IMG/VR virus record: IMGVR_UViG_3300021959_000053
Coordinates: 1 to 55,156 of that record
Source of the DNA: a virus
Lineage: Duplodnaviria > Caudoviricetes
Length of the DNA: 55,156 bases
Reading direction: 5' to 3' (one strand)
In this document: positions 3,030 to 55,156 of the stretch, in pieces
How the letters are laid out: each line of letters begins with the position of its first letter
Numbering within the stretch: the stretch's first letter is position 1
Notes under the pieces: generated by a model
The model's database searches: none
Seen by the model: the letters and a program-made list of their open reading frames with translations, nothing else
Told to the model about the DNA's origin: nothing
Position numbers and translations under genes: made by a program

Positions 3030-3947
3030 TTATCTAGCACGTCCTGAGATATCGTATACAAACTTACCTGAGGCCATTGCTTCTTGAATATCGGCGTAGC
3101 GATCTTCAAACTCTTTATCAGTCATTTTAGATACAACTGATTCTTTAAGATATGATTTTGTTTCATCTGCTTCTACAGTTGTTCTAGTCTTTTTAGATAC
3201 TGTTTTAGCTGCTTCTTTAGCTTTAGACTTTTTAGCAGAAATAGTTAAGTTATTATCTACTTTGTACAAGTCAATAACACGTATAACACTTCCTGCATCG
3301 TCTGAGTTTTCGTAGAGAGCATCACGTACCCACTTAGGTTGTTCCTCCACCCAATCGTGAAACTTATCAGAATCGCGTAGATCATCAAAGTCCTCGTGTG
3401 ACTTACGTATTTCAATTTCAGCTTTAGTTCTAGTAGCTTCATACTTAGCATCATCTAGTTCTTTAAAGCGACTATCAGCTGCAGCAAACTTTTCTGCTGC
3501 TTTCTTATCTGCAATAGTTTCAATAATAGAAGCTACATCTGGATTTTCAGAAGCCCAAGACTCAATGTCTTCGTCAGACATAGGTGGTCTTACAGAACTA
3601 CTTTGAGATTCTAAAGCCTCAAATCTTTCTTCCCATTCCTTTTCTTTAGAAGCCATATGCCGTCTAAGATCACCATATCTTTTCTTAAACGACTTTTCTT
3701 CAGGACTTAACTCAGTGTCTTCCTTGGGCTCTTTAGAAGAATCTTCAACTTTATCTTCAGTTTCCTGAGGCTCTTCAGTCTCTACCTCTTGTTGGTCTTC
3801 TTCTTCTTTAGAACTTTCTTGTCTCTTCATAAGGGCTTCTAGTTCTTCTTCATCTTTTTTAAGACGAGCCTGTTTAGCGGAGTAGTTGCTACCCCTAGCT
3901 ATCATTGTTTCTGTAGGGGTTGTCTCTTTTACCATTTCTGTAGGCAT
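3030..3947 (-). CDS. Capsid scaffolding protein
   Basis: Acidic coiled-coil, FKKRYGDLRRH motif, directly upstream of the capsid gene. Confidence 0.75.
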   Translation of the reverse strand: MPTEMVKETTPTETMIARGSNYSAKQARLKKDEEELEALMKRQESSKEEEDQQEVETEEPQETEDKVEDSSKEPKEDTELSPEEKSFKKRYGDLRRHMASKEKEWEERFEALESQSSSVRPPMSDEDIESWASENPDVASIIETIADKKAAEKFAAADSRFKELDDAKYEATRTKAEIEIRKSHEDFDDLRDSDKFHDWVEEQPKWVRDALYENSDDAGSVIRVIDLYKVDNNLTISAKKSKAKEAAKTVSKKTRTTVEADETKSYLKESVVSKMTDKEFEDRYADIQEAMASGKFVYDISGRAR

Positions 3948-14000: not shown

Positions 14001-14314
14001 TACTTATACTTTCTTTGATTAGCAGGGTTAGAAGCACCGCACCTAGCTAAACCACCTTTACTAGCTCTAAATGGTTTTACTTTTTTAGAGATTTTATTAG
14101 GTTGAGCTACAAATTGTTTACCAGCAGATTTTCCTTTTCTTTTAGCTTTTGTTGTAGCTGCATACTCAGAAGAACTTAAAGATTCAATAGCTTTCTTAGG
14201 AAGGTACCTTTCTCCAGTAGCCTTCGGGCCTTGAGTAGACGGTTTACCACTCTTGGTAGTCCACTCTTGCTTACCCCAGTCCTTTAAACTCTTCTGAGAT
14301 TTCTTTAAGGTCAT
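14000..14314 (-). CDS. Basic protein, C-terminal half of a DUF5872-like protein
   Basis: QKSLKDWGKQEWTTK...TGERYLPKKA...GKQFVAQP. Confidence 0.65.
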   Translation of the reverse strand: MTLKKSQKSLKDWGKQEWTTKSGKPSTQGPKATGERYLPKKAIESLSSSEYAATTKAKRKGKSAGKQFVAQPNKISKKVKPFRASKGGLARCGASNPANQRKYK

Positions 14315-14574
14315 CAGGCTTTTCTAACACCTGTGTTGAGGGTACCAGTACTTTTTACCATACCACCAACATTGTAAGTCATAACCTTACCACCCTTAGC
14401 ATAACCTTTTTTCTTCATCATGCCGCCTTTATTCATCTTGCCTTTACCATCCATAGCGTAGGCAGGAATCATTTCACCTGTCATAGGATTTTTCTTCATA
14501 GGCATACCGCCTTTAGCATAGCCCTTTTTCTTCATCATGCCACCTTTAGCATAACCTTTTTTCTTCATTCTCAT
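14314..14574 (-). CDS. Lys/Met/Gly-rich repeat peptide (MKKKGYAKGG x3)
   Basis: Tandem 30-nt coding repeats; coupled start/stop codons on both sides. Confidence 0.7.
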   Translation of the reverse strand: MRMKKKGYAKGGMMKKKGYAKGGMPMKKNPMTGEMIPAYAMDGKGKMNKGGMMKKKGYAKGGKVMTYNVGGMVKSTGTLNTGVRKA

Positions 14575-17493: not shown

Positions 17494-17775
17494 TTATTCC
17501 CAATCTCTTACTCTATTTGGATCTTTAACATCAGAAGATGATAACATACCTTCTAGGTACATACATCGTTCCATCTTGTCGAGAGACACCCAGTTACCCG
17601 TATCATTATAGTACTTTTCTCTAACGTAAAACACGTCGCTTCGTGGGATGTGTATTGTTCGTATTTCTTGAATGTCGTCATTGGCTAATGCTTTAAAGAA
17701 ATCTCTTAGAATATCGTCTGAATCAAAGAGATTATCACGGCTTAGCCTAGTGTTGACTTCGTATGGTTGTTCCAT
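17494..17775 (-). CDS. Conserved hypothetical protein
   Basis: HIPRSDVFYVR motif; start moved to ATG 17775 because GTG 17799 abuts the -10 box. Confidence 0.65.
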   Translation of the reverse strand: MEQPYEVNTRLSRDNLFDSDDILRDFFKALANDDIQEIRTIHIPRSDVFYVREKYYNDTGNWVSLDKMERCMYLEGMLSSSDVKDPNRVRDWE

Positions 17776-17800
17776 AAGGTTCTTCTTGTTAATGTCCACA

Positions 17801-17829
17801 GTTATACCACAGGGTAACTGTCAAGTCAA
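17801..17829 (-). promoter_or_regulatory. sigma70-type promoter
   Basis: TTGACT-17 nt-TATAAC with TG extension. Confidence 0.7.
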
Positions 17830-17913
17830 GGGATAAAGTGGAGAGGTTCTAAAAAAGTTACTTTTTCAAGAGTACGGCAAAAAGAAGATCTAAAGAATCT
17901 GAAGGTAACTATA

Positions 17914-17997
17914 AGTATATACTTAAAGTATTACTTTATTAACTATTATTTATTATTATTAATAATAATTACTCTTGATATACTTTAAGTATATACT
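17914..17997. repeat. 18-bp perfect inverted repeat around an AT-rich spacer
   Basis: AGTATATACTTAAAGTAT (17914-17931) / ATACTTTAAGTATATACT (17980-17997). Confidence 0.85.
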
Positions 17998-18006
17998 CTA
18001 AGTATA

Positions 18007-18035
18007 GTTATAGCACCTTTGAGCCGCGATGTCAA
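18007..18035 (-). promoter_or_regulatory. sigma70-type promoter
   Basis: TTGACA-17 nt-TATAAC with TG extension. Confidence 0.8.
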
Positions 18036-18111
18036 TCCTAAATATCTATCTTTTGTGTTATTTAGTGTCTTGACTAAAGAGTTGAAGGTGTTTTAGTTGA
18101 ACTCTAAGTCT

Positions 18112-18140
18112 ATTATACACCATGTTACTTAACGTGTCAA
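18112..18140 (-). promoter_or_regulatory. sigma70 consensus promoter
   Basis: TTGACA-17 nt-TATAAT. Confidence 0.85.
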
Positions 18141-18279
18141 GGCTTTTCTTAGGTTTTAAGTAAGTTTTAGTAGGTTTACATATAAAATAAAGTGGTTTAC
18201 AGTTTGAAAATACTCCCCGCTGTCATTGTGGGTACATATAACGCCCCGAGGTGGGCTGGCCCCTCTAGCGCTGCCTGTA

Positions 18280-18519
18280 ATACGTCAGGTATACTTACCT
18301 ATTTTCTGTGACATTTTTATCACACTACTATGCTATGAGAATACACTCAGTTTTTAGGTCAGTGTTGTTGACATATTAATTTTGTGTACAATTTTAGTTC
18401 AACGTTGAACCATATTTAATTCAAAATGAAACTATAATTTAGTTTAACGTTAAACCTTTTTACAATAGGTCACCACCCCTTACCTATCGGTCTACAATAG
18501 GTAAACACTATTGACCTAA
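18280..18519. promoter_or_regulatory. Four copies of the palindromic operator ATAGGTMA-N7-TKACCTAT
   Basis: 18280-18302, 18354-18376, 18465-18487, 18497-18519. Confidence 0.75.
18397..18455. promoter_or_regulatory. Palindrome array GTTYAACGTTRAAC
   Basis: Perfect at 18397-18410 and 18442-18455, degenerate at 18419-18432. Confidence 0.7.
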
Positions 18520-18530
18520 TTCTATTCTAC

Positions 18531-18567
18531 AAACAAAACAGGAACGAATAGAGAACAAAACGAGAAC
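18531..18567 (+). promoter_or_regulatory. Alphaproteobacterial LexA box array GAAC-N7-GAAC-N7-GAAC
   Basis: GAAC at 18542, 18553, 18564 and AAAC at 18531; 11-bp period. Confidence 0.8.
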
Positions 18568-18642
18568 CACGCCTCAGACCTTCTATTTGCCCCTTAGAAT
18601 GCATCTTTAACCTTTTAGGTACCTTACCACCCTAGAAAACAG

Positions 18643-18679
18643 TTTCACCAAACGTACACCTTTTGTTCTACTTTTGTTC
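18643..18679 (-). promoter_or_regulatory. Second LexA box array in inverted orientation
   Basis: TTTC 18643, GTAC 18654, GTTC 18665, GTTC 18676; 11-bp period. Confidence 0.8.
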
Positions 18680-18826
18680 TCATTTCTTGGGATACTGAAA
18701 TATACTTTCGTATTTCCCGAAACTAAACTATTTTCTATTTATTCTTTTATTCTTTTGTACTACGCGCACCCGCGCCTTTTCATTATATAAATATTGCTAC
18801 TATGCCAAAAGCCTAAAAGTTTACTG

Positions 18827-18931
18827 TAAACTGTTGATTTTAAAGCATAATCAAAATTAATTACATTTATTTACATTATTTTATTCAACGTTTTCAAACA
18901 CTTAGAAAACTAATTATATAACCTATTGATT
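18827..18931. promoter_or_regulatory. IHF consensus sites
   Basis: Minus strand AATCAACAGTTTA (18827-18839) and AATCAATAGGTTA (18919-18931) match WATCAANNNNTTR; one-mismatch site on + at 18892-18904. Confidence 0.65.
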
Positions 18932-18984
18932 TTAAACGATTACTTTTTATTGTGGTTTGTTTTTCCCTATGCCATAACTAATTC

Positions 18985-19400
18985 ATCGAAAGACGGAAAC
19001 GAAAGGAAAACAAAGTGGAGTTGGATGCTCCTAGGATCTAAATTAAATATCCTTGACTAGTACCTACGTGATTTAGTGCGACGGATTTTACGGCATAGCC
19101 TCAATCTGACACTTTATCAAGGCGATACAGCTTGTAGGTGGTTTCTAGCAATGTGATTTTAAGGTGGCTTCACTGGTATCATGCCCAAACCATGTGTTAA
19201 GGGTTGGTGTTCGTTCATTATTAAAATCAAAAGTGGTTGATTGCCAGTAGTCTCTTTTAAAATGGGGATTGGTATCGGACTTCACTGATGGATAGACTGT
19301 TGCAGCATTCGGGTGAAGGTAGAGAAAGCGAAAGACCACAATCATTTTCATATATAAGCATATCATTATGGTGTGTTTTTATTAGAAAATGAAAAGGATA
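18985..19400 (+). ncRNA. Candidate structured RNA / long early leader
   Basis: No credible sense ORF; multiple nested stems. Confidence 0.45.
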
Positions 19401-19405
19401 ATAAC

Positions 19406-19915
19406 ATGACAAACAATATCAAAACAATTGAAGATAAGTTCGTAAATGCTATGGGTTCAGGTGTTGCCGCAAGTGGGCACCTCTTAACTCTTATGGTGAA
19501 TACCGCACAGTCTGAAGATGGCCGTAATCTTGCAAGTGCTATTGCTCGTTTAAATAAAAAGCAGGACAAGCAAGGATCAAACGCGGTTCGTCAAGTGATT
19601 GCATCTGTTTTTGTGGGTGCTAAAATTAAGAAAGCTAAGGATAACAAAACAATTTTGCTATCATTAAAGGATGCTAATCTTAATCAAGAGGCCATGCAAC
19701 GCCTTTCGGATGGTGTTAAAAAGGGTCTGTCTCTCCGTTCAACTCTAGCTAAAACTGTAAAAGGTGAGACCGCCAAACCAAAGGAAGTAACTGCTAGCTC
19801 AATTGCTGTACCAGCTGCGAAAAAAGCTGTAAAAGCCAATATAAAGAAAGCTCAATATATGGCAACAATGGAAGCTGCATTCGATGCTGAAATGAAAGAA
19901 AGACTTGCGAAATAA
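19406..19915 (+). CDS. First early protein, basic, with Ala/Lys-rich C-terminus
   Basis: ATG 19406 with AAGGA RBS; codon usage suggests high expression. Confidence 0.75.
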   Translation: MTNNIKTIEDKFVNAMGSGVAASGHLLTLMVNTAQSEDGRNLASAIARLNKKQDKQGSNAVRQVIASVFVGAKIKKAKDNKTILLSLKDANLNQEAMQRLSDGVKKGLSLRSTLAKTVKGETAKPKEVTASSIAVPAAKKAVKANIKKAQYMATMEAAFDAEMKERLAK

Positions 19916-21950: not shown

Positions 21951-22313
21951 ATGTTTACAGATAAACAATTAACTATGTTAGAAGAAGTCCTAGAATTTTA
22001 TGGACCTAGAACACGCTCTAAGCACGGTTACAACGACTGGGGTAACTTGCTTGCAAAGGTAAGGAAAAGTAAAGGTGTTAAGGTAGTAACACTAGGTCAA
22101 GCATCTAAGATGACTGGTGTATCTAAGCCTACAATATCTAAAGCTGTTATGGATCGGCGTGTGTTTGGTAAGAAGGTAGATGGTGTGTTTCAGATTGAGG
22201 TACCAGCCCTCTTGAGTGTATACCCTGCAAAACCAGCAACAGAAACAAAGGGAAAAGCAAAGGTTATACACCAAGATGACTCTATACTAGTAACGATAAG
22301 GATTGAAAAATGA
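21951..22313 (+). CDS. HTH (excisionase/MerR-like) DNA-binding protein
   Basis: TLGQASKMTGVSKPTISKAV...G.FQIE. Confidence 0.7.
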   Translation: MFTDKQLTMLEEVLEFYGPRTRSKHGYNDWGNLLAKVRKSKGVKVVTLGQASKMTGVSKPTISKAVMDRRVFGKKVDGVFQIEVPALLSVYPAKPATETKGKAKVIHQDDSILVTIRIEK

Positions 22314-24218: not shown

Positions 24219-24295
24219 GTCTCCTTAGCTCAACTGGATAGAGCAACTGCCTTCTAAGCAGTAGGTTACAGGTTCGAGTCCTGTAGGGGACACCA
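24219..24295 (+). tRNA. tRNA-Arg(TCT)
   Basis: Acceptor GTCTCCT/AGGGGAC, D-arm, anticodon stem ACTGC/GCAGT with loop CTTCTAA, GGTTCGAGTCC T-arm, encoded CCA. Confidence 0.95.
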
Positions 24296-53109: not shown

Positions 53110-54822
53110 CTAGCGTCTTGCCGCTGCTGTAAATTCTAATTGAAAGCCTTTTAGTGAGTAAGGAAAAGACACCCCATTGTCTACTACCCTTAAAGCTACT
53201 GAAAAACCTGATCCCTCAACAGGTTGTCTAATCAATGGATCCGATTGACCACCATAAGTAGATTGACCGTACAAACCACTTCCGTATAAAGCTACAACTT
53301 GACTTGAATCAAAAGGATAAGCGTCGGGTCTAGCTGAGTCAGGGCTTTCATAGTCATACCTTAGAAATAACTGTGAATTAAGAACCCCCTCGGGTGCATA
53401 GTTAATAATAACACGTTGAAAAGCTTTACGGATACCAGCATCTCCTGCTGTAATGTCTGTACTACGATAACGTCCAATAATTGTAGTTCCATCAAAGGTG
53501 TTGCCTTGTTGATCTTGGTACACGTACCCGTCGTAACCACCCATTATATTAAAGTAACTACCTTGAAATTCACCAGTATCACTAGAGTACATTTTCAAAC
53601 CTTTAGTTGTAGCAAACTCATAGCCACTCGGTTTAAGACTGCAGATTACACCGTCAGTATATATATCTCTTTCAGCAGTACTACCAAATATAAGTCTATA
53701 CTGAGTTTTATTAGGAATAACGTATGACTCAAACTCGTCAACATCTCCTCTATTTTTAAATAATTCTTGGATAGGGCTTGAAATAGAACTTAAATTAACG
53801 TCACCAATCTTTTCTGTACCAGCAATAGTACGAAGACCATCAGGCCCTAAGAATATAACATCACCAGCAAATTCTTTAATAGTCCATCCATTCCTACAGC
53901 CAATTTCTCTTGTAATTGGGGTAAGTTGAAAGTCTGATTGAGAACTACCTGTCAAACGATAAATTCTATTAGCTGAGAAAATGTAAAGGTTATCCCTAAA
54001 AACTATCATCCCAGTTACAGGCGCATCAATTGCAAAACTACCTGCTCCATTTGCTAAACTAAAATTGTTTATAGTTAAAGGTGCTGTAAAAACAATTTCT
54101 TCTGGATTACTTGACATTCCTGCATAAAACCCAGTGTTTTTAAATACAGCAATAAATTTAGGATCAGCTGGAGCATTTGTACCATTAATATCTGTTATCG
54201 AAGATCCATTCCAGTACGAAGCATGGTTAGTTCCATCCGCAAAAGCAAGTAAGTCTTCACCTGTGTAGTCAAACCTAGTGTGCGTGTACTTTTTTGCATT
54301 TGTTCTACCAGAATCAATAGAAGTCCATGTTTGTTGAATTGAAAGATTATCAACATGCGAAGCAGCTGAAGTACTGTTAGCACCCCTAGTGCAACCTGTA
54401 AATGTAGTTGTCGTTAAACCTGTATATGTTATTTGCTCAGTACCTACAAGAAGTGTACCAGTCGTTGAAAAACCAGTAGTACTATCAACCGTTAATGTAG
54501 TAACACTTGCATTAATAGCTCCATCTAAACTATTAGTCTGAGCTGAAGATCTATAGATAGCTGAACCACGAGCACCTATTACTTCTCCTGAGTAGAAAGC
54601 ACACATAAGAATAGGTTCATCATCATCTGACGCTGTAAATGGAATCTTTTGAGAAGTCCATTTAGTGTACCCATCTATTCTTCTGTAGCCACCTGAAGTA
54701 TCTGGCTCAAAGTTTTGTAACTCAAGGGCAGCACCAGGTGGTACCTCAAAGTTAGACTTATCTAAAATTAAGCCACCTTGTAATGGGAATATAAAAGGAG
54801 AAAGACCAGTTGTATCAGCCAT
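53110..54822 (-). CDS. Tail nozzle / tail tubular protein B-like
   Basis: 570 aa; GGL..., NFEP..GGYRRIDG, IFLGPDGLR; follows the adaptor gene on the circular map. Confidence 0.7.
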   Translation of the reverse strand: MADTTGLSPFIFPLQGGLILDKSNFEVPPGAALELQNFEPDTSGGYRRIDGYTKWTSQKIPFTASDDDEPILMCAFYSGEVIGARGSAIYRSSAQTNSLDGAINASVTTLTVDSTTGFSTTGTLLVGTEQITYTGLTTTTFTGCTRGANSTSAASHVDNLSIQQTWTSIDSGRTNAKKYTHTRFDYTGEDLLAFADGTNHASYWNGSSITDINGTNAPADPKFIAVFKNTGFYAGMSSNPEEIVFTAPLTINNFSLANGAGSFAIDAPVTGMIVFRDNLYIFSANRIYRLTGSSQSDFQLTPITREIGCRNGWTIKEFAGDVIFLGPDGLRTIAGTEKIGDVNLSSISSPIQELFKNRGDVDEFESYVIPNKTQYRLIFGSTAERDIYTDGVICSLKPSGYEFATTKGLKMYSSDTGEFQGSYFNIMGGYDGYVYQDQQGNTFDGTTIIGRYRSTDITAGDAGIRKAFQRVIINYAPEGVLNSQLFLRYDYESPDSARPDAYPFDSSQVVALYGSGLYGQSTYGGQSDPLIRQPVEGSGFSVALRVVDNGVSFPYSLKGFQLEFTAAARR

Positions 54823-55156
54823 ATTGCTTTTTCTCTTTTAAGAAACTGAAGGAAATACAGATGTACTTACACCTGGGCCAGAAAGTACAGTTGAACGTAT
54901 GTACTTAAAACGATTAACAAGATTAGTTTGCATCTGTGTAATACCGCTATTAAATCTAGACCAGTTTGCTTGATATTGCTCTAGCTCACCTCTATACTGG
55001 TAAGCATAAGATGTAGCACCATCTGCAATAACTGGACGGTATAGCTCAGGTATGTCAGGTACATCTGATGCTTCTGACAGAGCTACTGTTGAAGCGTAAT
55101 ACTCAAACTTTAATGTATAAGCTTTATCTGGGTAAGGGTATAAAAGATAGTTATTA
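54579..55156. repeat. Terminal overlap, right copy
   Basis: Matches 1-578. Confidence 0.97.
54838..55156 (-). CDS. Partial duplicate of the 3' end of the adaptor gene (260-982)
   Basis: Lies within the terminal overlap. Confidence 0.85.
   Translation of the reverse strand, partial: NNYLLYPYPDKAYTLKFEYYASTVALSEASDVPDIPELYRPVIADGATSYAYQYRGELEQYQANWSRFNSGITQMQTNLVNRFKYIRSTVLSGPGVSTSVFPSVS

Follow-up and report, generated by a model that had tools for sequence, protein, structure and literature searches.

Probable host LexA operators arrayed in the gene-free gap between the two arms of a roseophage genome

Here, we describe two arrays of phased tetramers in the gene-free gap of an uncultured virus (IMG/VR record IMGVR_UViG_3300021959_000053). 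The window, i.e., the whole 55,156-bp stretch of DNA that was analysed, is an entire podovirus genome of a CRP-9/CRP-13-like roseophage. Its genes follow a two-arm layout, with late, lysis and structural genes on the minus strand and early and replication genes on the plus strand. The gap between the arms has a GC content of 33%, sits at the minimum of the cumulative GC skew and is hypervariable across metagenomes. In window coordinates, the arrays and their surroundings are as follows:

17494-17799, minus strand: first late gene, coding a small protein that borders the gap
17800-19372: gene-free gap of 1.57 kb, with the late/lysis arm running leftward from it and the early arm rightward
18531-18567, minus strand: left array, reading GTTC, GTTC, GTTC, GTTT outward from 18567 at 11-bp spacing
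18568-18642: core of 75 bp between the arrays, partly conserved (CCTC.GA..CC.TTCTA..GCC)
18643-18679, plus strand: right array, TTTC (18643)-N7-GTAC (18654)-N7-GTTC (18665)-N7-GTTC (18676-18679)
18665-18679, plus strand: best match of the genome to a LexA operator, GTTCTACTTTTGTTC, with T-rich flanks
19406-19915, plus strand: first early gene, of the gp1 family (160-180 amino acids), a fast-evolving orphan

An earlier note on this DNA had claimed inverted arrays at 18531-18567 and 18643-18679, and both are present at exactly these positions. On the top strand, the left array reads AAAC (18531)-N7-GAAC (18542)-N7-GAAC (18553)-N7-GAAC (18564-18567), and it contains two overlapping perfect LexA-type boxes (18553-18567 and 18542-18556). 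With the box in the right array, the element thus holds three perfect GTTC-N7-GTTC boxes, starting at 18542 and 18553 (minus) and at 18665 (plus). Measured to the start codon at 19406, the arrays lie 694-842 bp upstream of the first early gene; on the other side, the distance to the first late gene is 732-880 bp. Across the whole window, GTTC-N7-GTTC occurs 4 times against 1.55 expected, a count that alone is not significant because 8 of 100 shuffles reach 4. Three of the four sites fall within the 149-bp array element, and triples of any tetramer in the form X-N7-X-N7-X occur only twice in the window.

GTTC-N7-GTTC is given as the LexA motif of Alphaproteobacteria in the available parts of two papers (PMC3323433, PMC9578287). 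We compared the arrays with operators extracted from roseobacter genomes, which were reached by a scan with a 16S probe (30 of 120 loci, selected by title). Over the family cut-off, lexA was found in 28 of the 30 genomes and recA in 27, and wherever the full upstream region was at hand a perfect GTTC-N7-GTTC preceded the gene (lexA: 28/28; recA: 26/26). Three-unit runs occur at 3 of the 28 lexA promoters. A second box in the opposite orientation, GTTCTCnTTTTG(G/A)TC, or gaaaTGTTCTCnTTTTG(G/A)TCTCATA in its longer form, is present at 22/26 recA regions, between the -35 and -10 elements. One host recA box (L386) reads GTTC-N7-GTAC; GTAC, which had been said to be tolerated, therefore does occur in a real operator.

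A matrix built from 56 distinct lexA/recA operator sites shows preferences for T at -1, +4, +10 and +15 outside the core. The three highest matrix hits of the whole 55-kb phage are precisely the array boxes at 18665(+), 18542(-) and 18553(-), scoring 31.1, 22.6 and 17.0 bits, respectively; the host sites themselves score 25.1 bits at the median and 33.4 at most, and the best of 200 simulated genomes reached 21.9. The fourth GTTC-N7-GTTC of the window (35362, upstream of phoH) scored below the top 25 and was taken as a chance occurrence. Operators of roseobacter lexA and recA (lexA of L355; recA box 1) are almost the same in sequence as the site at 18665-18679, and GTTCTCnTTTTGTTCT, the consensus of the phage sites, amounts to a recA box 1 whose second half is perfect. 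Among 69 distinct phage sites, the columns outside the core follow the host pattern as well (r = 0.69), a score reached by 24 of 10,000 column permutations. Core, spacing and flanks all match the extracted roseobacter operators, in support of the description of these repeats as alphaproteobacterial SOS boxes. Judged by this resemblance, the arrays very probably represent operators for the host LexA, and LexA likely binds these sites.

As in host lexA/recA SOS boxes of the Rhodobacter and Caulobacter type, the phage sites combine the tetramer with a 7-bp spacer, a T before and after GTTC and a T-rich spacer. Host recA likewise carries two oppositely oriented boxes, and the three-unit runs at some lexA promoters recall the phage arrangement. 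Unlike host SOS boxes, the phage sites come as two sets of four phased units that flank a 75-bp core and keep a fixed 112-bp offset. Furthermore, host boxes lie inside or next to a promoter (recA box 1 between -35 and -10), whereas no promoter consistently adjoins the phage boxes.

The arrangement is conserved in two other lineages. With the protein at 17494-17799 as query, we obtained seven related loci, four of which hold fewer than 850 bases upstream. All loci that reach far enough (L002, L004 and L006) carry two outward-pointing 4-unit arrays in the same place with the same 112-bp start-to-start offset; they represent only two lineages besides the window phage because L002 equals L004 in this region, with L003 about 97% alike. 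In the gap-free alignment between lineages, the tetramer columns are identical at 27-30 of 32 positions (84-94%), compared with 50-73 of 117 (43-62%) for the remaining columns of the element. Tetramers and geometry are kept while the spacers drift; selection therefore targets the 11-bp repetition of GTTC and the geometry, and spares the remaining sequence of the element. Origin iterons would be expected to be conserved over the whole repeat, and here the columns outside the tetramers drift.

Boxes of this type recur across the phage family. Searching viral contigs with a profile of the late protein that flanks the gap gave 564 relatives, and 80 of these (346 kb) were taken for analysis. Their loci contain 91 perfect GTTC-N7-GTTC cores and 47 matrix hits of at least 15 bits, versus 5 with a reversed matrix, and 46 of the 47 hits lie 400-1199 bp upstream of the late gene. 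At least one hit was present in 28 of the 46 loci having enough sequence. Clustering the gap regions at 85% identity over 700 bp left 34 independent clusters, of which 19 have a hit; their representatives carry 28 hits, compared with a simulated mean of 0.05 (maximum 1 in 300) and 1 with the reversed matrix. The number of boxes per gap ranges from 0 to 6 among relatives, in either orientation, and the cultured phage CRP-9 has two boxes at the homologous spot. A strict search for paired 4-unit GTTC arrays returned none in 46 further relatives, and paired 4-unit arrays of any tetramer were found only in L140, the same contig as L006, and nowhere beyond the clade of the window phage. We consider this paired-array criterion too strict because single and double boxes are common in relatives. 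A single 3-unit match with a mismatch in CRP-901 lies inside a tail-fibre gene and was discarded.

The nearest cultured relatives of the window phage are CRP-9 and CRP-13 (PolA 62% identical), both of which infect the Rhodobacteraceae strain FZCC0023, and the next-nearest relatives are likewise roseophages. By this kinship, the host is presumably a roseobacter (Rhodobacteraceae), and the earlier note's caveat that a host outside Alphaproteobacteria would undo the LexA reading does not apply to these relatives. The early arm codes for ThyX, primase-helicase, PolA, endonuclease I, MazG, RNR and PhoH, and many of its small open reading frames (ORFs) are orphans without a family. PHROG and Pfam scans of 50 + 28 + 16 ORFs detected no integrase, repressor, partition or antirepressor family, in agreement with the earlier remark that no integrase or CI is visible, nor did we find a LexA homologue encoded by the window phage. 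The repressor, antirepressor and maintenance genes that accompany LexA-controlled phage switches in temperate or carrier-state phages were likewise absent from the ORF scans. In the available text on CRP-9 and CRP-13 (PMC8528129), an integrase is reported in one named group only and in none of the other groups, and the group of the window phage counts there as integrase-free. Bases 1-578 of the window are repeated at 54579-55156 with 8 mismatches; this duplication, which lies away from the arrays, probably reflects the circular (wrap-around) assembly of a mixed population and not a true terminal repeat. We also noticed an 86-amino-acid ORF in the late arm (14314-14574, minus strand) that consists largely of KKKGYAKGGM-type repeats.

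Other elements of the gap are listed here together with the tRNA gene of the early arm:

18112-18140, minus strand: perfect consensus sigma-70 promoter, TTGACA-17-TATAAT (12/12), directed toward the late/lysis arm
18393-18461: three 14-bp palindromes of the GTTyAACGTTrAAC type, 22-23 bp apart, adjoining the arrays
18677-18706, plus strand: candidate weak sigma-70-like promoter, TTCTCA-18-TATACT (9/12), its -35 overlapping the last unit of the right array
19008-19289: RNA-covered segment, from contigs of four metatranscriptome runs
24219-24295: tRNA-Arg(TCT), the same tRNA as published for CRP-9 and CRP-13 (PMC8528129, from the available text)

The segment at 19008-19289 has the deepest RNA-contig coverage of the 4 kb examined; three contigs start at 19040 and end at 19261-19289, and one spans 19008-19201. 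Lying ahead of the first early gene, this RNA would be either a leader or a small RNA. No RNA contig covers 17804-19008, arrays included, an absence that carries no weight either way. Folding of 19008-19345 does not differ from that of shuffled sequences (z = -0.10 and +1.11), and Rfam returned no match in the gap save a chance miRNA at E = 0.47 and none in L004 and CRP-9. By BLAST, only the 3' end of the transcribed segment, near the gene start, is conserved in relatives. At the same position, L004 and CRP-9 carry a longer, GC-richer insert.

The palindromes adjoining the arrays belong to a family of 2-4 copies of 14-18 bp, (TA)GTTTAACGTTAAAC(TA), about 22 bp apart, present in the window phage, in CRP-9 and CRP-13 (L129 3870-3945; L391 1330-1440) and at many contig ends. 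Their likely role is that of operators for a dimeric regulator encoded by the phage. A conserved block, GTGGTTAACAG..AAAATACCCC.CTGTCA..GTATATA, lies at 18185-18240 and in the same gap of L004, CRP-9 and CRP-13 (L004 ~3480-3540; L129 ~3720-3790; L391 ~1205-1275). Near the first late gene, a run of TATACTTTAAGTATA-type palindromic repeats (17908-18015) is conserved across many relatives and appears in some of them as TTAA-N7-TTAA runs; the CtrA box TTAA-N7-TTAA is not enriched in the window (4 versus 3.29 expected). In CRP-13, three TGTGATCACA palindromes about 37 bp apart occupy the same gap (L129 3970-4070), and in the uncultured relatives L145, L155, L159 and L162 the TGTGATCACA palindrome comes after LexA-type boxes.

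Since the arrays look like host LexA sites, the virus probably reads or manipulates the DNA-damage alarm of its host. In the mechanism that we favour, the arrays would be operators for the host LexA repressor, each array offering a strong box and, in helical phase with it, a weaker one, and therefore room for up to two LexA dimers on each side. The 75-bp core might seat two back-to-back promoters, and bound LexA would then block transcription leaving the core in both directions, i.e., leftward into the late/lysis arm and rightward into the leader RNA and the early genes. Self-cleavage of LexA after ultraviolet (UV) light, other DNA damage or an SOS signal raised by replication would lift the block, thus coupling phage development to the SOS state of the host. 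LexA binding, the promoters of the core and the direction of the effect are what we infer here. Titration of LexA, looping of the DNA and a carrier state, as put forward in the earlier note, are likewise conjectural. It is quite possible, if tentative, that such SOS-gated transcription from the core constitutes the main role of the arrays. Phage infection is reported to raise the expression of both recA and lexA, in Sulfitobacter by one paper (PMC7305329) and in SAR11 by another (PMC12753301), as far as the available parts of these papers go. In the L004 and L006 lineages, the core shows an outward-facing -10-like TAGAAT, with TAGAAA or TAAAAT 4-5 nt before the right array, and 15 of 65 arrays have a -10-like hexamer at a fixed 13-15 nt upstream.

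Several observations weigh against this reading. The only strong promoter of the gap (18112-18140) lies about 390 bp from the arrays and is overlapped by no box; the arrays of L004 have no consensus sigma-70 promoter, the window has only the weak one, and -10-like hexamers occur upstream of 28 of 65 arrays versus 51% of random 22-mers, hence without enrichment. The RNA contigs start about 330 bp from the arrays. One L004 array (ATTC, GTTC, GTTT, GTTC) lacks a perfect dimer site, and the matrix was built on orthologous operators of two genes only. The survey of relatives that had been suggested as a check gave a divided answer: boxes recur in 19 of the 34 clusters and in CRP-9, but 15 of the 34 gap clusters have no matrix hit, CRP-13 has no boxes though it infects the same strain as CRP-9, and the roseophage (cobavirus) ICBM2 has 0 matrix hits. 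Moreover, four phased units per side at a fixed 112-bp offset are unlike ordinary SOS operators and recall iterons or centromere sites. Finally, box occurrence is associated with the first early gene. When gene content was compared over 9 kb in 20 genomes, members of the gp1 family turned up in 11 of the 14 genomes that have boxes and in none of the 6 that lack them (Fisher P = 0.002, with no correction for 45 tests and with relatedness as a confounder).

The protein that such an association would point to is itself hard to place. gp1 has no Pfam or PHROG family, and tblastn against the 'phages' collection returned no homologue. A hidden Markov model search gave 11 members, and the best sub-threshold hits were positionally equivalent ORFs in three other genomes. 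Structural models are confident (pLDDT 79.6 and 86.7, the latter for residues 1-125) and matched no known fold, giving only weak generic helical matches (Foldseek E ≥ 0.18, VIA Z ≤ 6.9). None of 28 early and small ORFs has a DNA-binding domain that Pfam could detect, and the PHROG and Pfam scans detected no initiator, O, DnaD, Rep, ParR, ParM or other partition or DNA-binding family; the replication proteins found were primase-helicase and PolA only. An HTH_17-like lead (ORF 21951-22313, score 0.84) was rejected as a common binder because homologues are absent from the 25 relatives examined, as they are from the 'phages' collection.

The association and the architecture together make up the case for a binder encoded by the phage, in which the arrays would be origin iterons or operators of a phage regulator, possibly gp1, and their likeness to LexA sites coincidence or mimicry. 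The gap is AT-rich and lies at the GC-skew minimum between divergent arms, and four phased 11-bp units flanking a core resemble an origin or a centromere. The lambda ori lies in gene O, and the parC of R1 consists of 11-bp repeats flanking a promoter; as in iteron arrays and plasmid centromeres generally, short phased direct repeats form two blocks round a core in an AT-rich region. Viral contigs unrelated to the window phage show that 11-bp iterons containing GTTC exist: there, a GTTCAnTTGTT x5 array is found inside an O/DnaD-like gene. In L028 (1501-1537) the array sits in the O/DnaD-like initiator gene, which is followed by a DnaC-like loader, an arrangement that is a lambda-type origin within an initiator gene. 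The same array recurs in viral contigs of about 35-48 kb, at about 18 loci besides L028 among the matches listed (L021, L024, L027, L029, L037, L041, L060, L083, L084, L097, L099, L106-L108, L111, L114 and L115). A scan of viral contigs for GTTC x4 as such does not discriminate, because most of its at least 120 stretches are unrelated 11-bp tandem repeats. The different repeats of CRP-13 (TGTGATCACA x3) in the same gap are also what modular phage regulators would give. Against a phage binder, the conserved part of each unit is the tetramer plus a few flanking bases and not a full iteron, and the host operator is matched in its core, spacing and flanks alike. Unlike in iteron and parC systems, no initiator, Rep, ParR-type or other DNA-binding gene was found in the ORF scans; L155, L159, L190 and CRP-9 have boxes without a detectable gp1, and the confident gp1 models match no DNA-binding fold, a result that points neither way. 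On balance, we regard a phage-encoded binder as unlikely.

A LexA sponge is distinctly unlikely. Here, replicating copies with at least three strong boxes each would outnumber the host operators and switch on the SOS regulon (recA, repair, nucleotide supply), with no phage promoter needing to be under control. All evidence for LexA-type sites applies equally to such a sink, and the variation of the boxes in number, orientation and position (0-6 per gap), with no promoter consistently adjoining them, fits decoys better than precisely placed operators. In contrast, the fixed geometry in the window, L004 and L006 lineages would be needless for a mere sink, many relatives have one box only, which makes a weak sink, and infection already induces SOS in related hosts with no decoys being required (PMC7305329, PMC12753301, from the parts available). 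A further, rather improbable option is that LexA acts at a replication origin or architectural site, gating or shaping initiation instead of expression. The element sits halfway between the two arms, where the cumulative skew is lowest, and far from the consensus promoter and the RNA contigs; its inverted arrays flank a short core, and the phage has a T7-type primase-helicase and PolA with no initiator found; in T7-type systems, transcription primes the origin. However, GC skew is confounded by transcription direction, this phage family has no mapped origin, and we know of no precedent for LexA-gated phage origins, for which no search was made. We consider it highly improbable that the arrays are packaging or terminus repeats bordering a pac site or genome end, comparable to the short repeats that accompany T7-type terminal repeats. 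In ICBM2, which shares the two-arm layout, the corresponding gap contains the annotated terminal repeats (159 bp), bordered by inverted short repeats, and contigs of relatives tend to end in the gap (of 42 truncated loci among L133-L212, 27 stop 500-1000 bp from the late gene). Yet these ends are scattered over the gap and share no sequence, and we read the gap as a hypervariable hot spot that breaks assemblies. A single direct terminal repeat was observed, and its length of 127 bp is one that assemblers typically use as word size; the ICBM2 repeats are unrelated to GTTC, and packaging would leave the match to host operators unexplained.

Operators for the host SOS repressor, the reading that we prefer, have counterparts in GIL01 (gp7), CTXphi and coliphage 186, in which DNA damage alters phage expression. 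According to the accessible portions of two papers (PMC9437464, PMC6182141), these are temperate or carrier-state elements in which LexA controls the lysis-lysogeny decision. Unlike them, the window phage has no integrase, repressor, partition or antirepressor gene that our scans could find, and its motif is the alphaproteobacterial direct repeat. Closer in lifestyle are the CtrA boxes of lytic alphaproteobacterial phages ('lytic deferment') and the Spo0A sites of phi29, where non-temperate phages are likewise wired into a global regulator of the host (PMC9437464, in part). CtrA boxes (TTAA-N7-TTAA) share the 11-bp period with the arrays; the signal is the cell cycle or sporulation in the case of CtrA and Spo0A, and would be the SOS response here.

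That temperate phages and mobile elements use the host LexA to trigger induction is already known (PMC9437464, in the part available). Here, LexA-type operators, checked against real host operators, recur in a phage family in which no lysogeny genes were found. Our literature search found no report of LexA boxes in this roseophage group, and the words LexA, promoter and intergenic are absent from the available text of the CRP-9/CRP-13 paper (PMC8528129). We would go further only with considerable reserve: integrase-free marine roseophages may have plugged the host LexA into the hub between their two arms, creating an SOS-dependent switch for deferment or takeover, a proposal we rate as doubtful. 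In the same, equally speculative vein, the SOS state, set by daytime UV or by the replication of the phage itself, might time the lytic programme, or the phage DNA might strip LexA from the host chromosome; the orphan first early protein, which occurs along with the boxes, might be a partner of LexA. Because CRP-9 (two boxes) and CRP-13 (none) grow on one cultured strain, the idea is directly testable. The family is globally common, and its hosts, the RCA lineage of Roseobacter, are abundant in the ocean. Should LexA bind, the timing of infection or the takeover of the host would depend on DNA damage, which would bear on how sunlight and stress shape viral lysis at sea. LexA would then also join CtrA as a second master regulator of the host to which lytic alphaproteobacterial phages respond.

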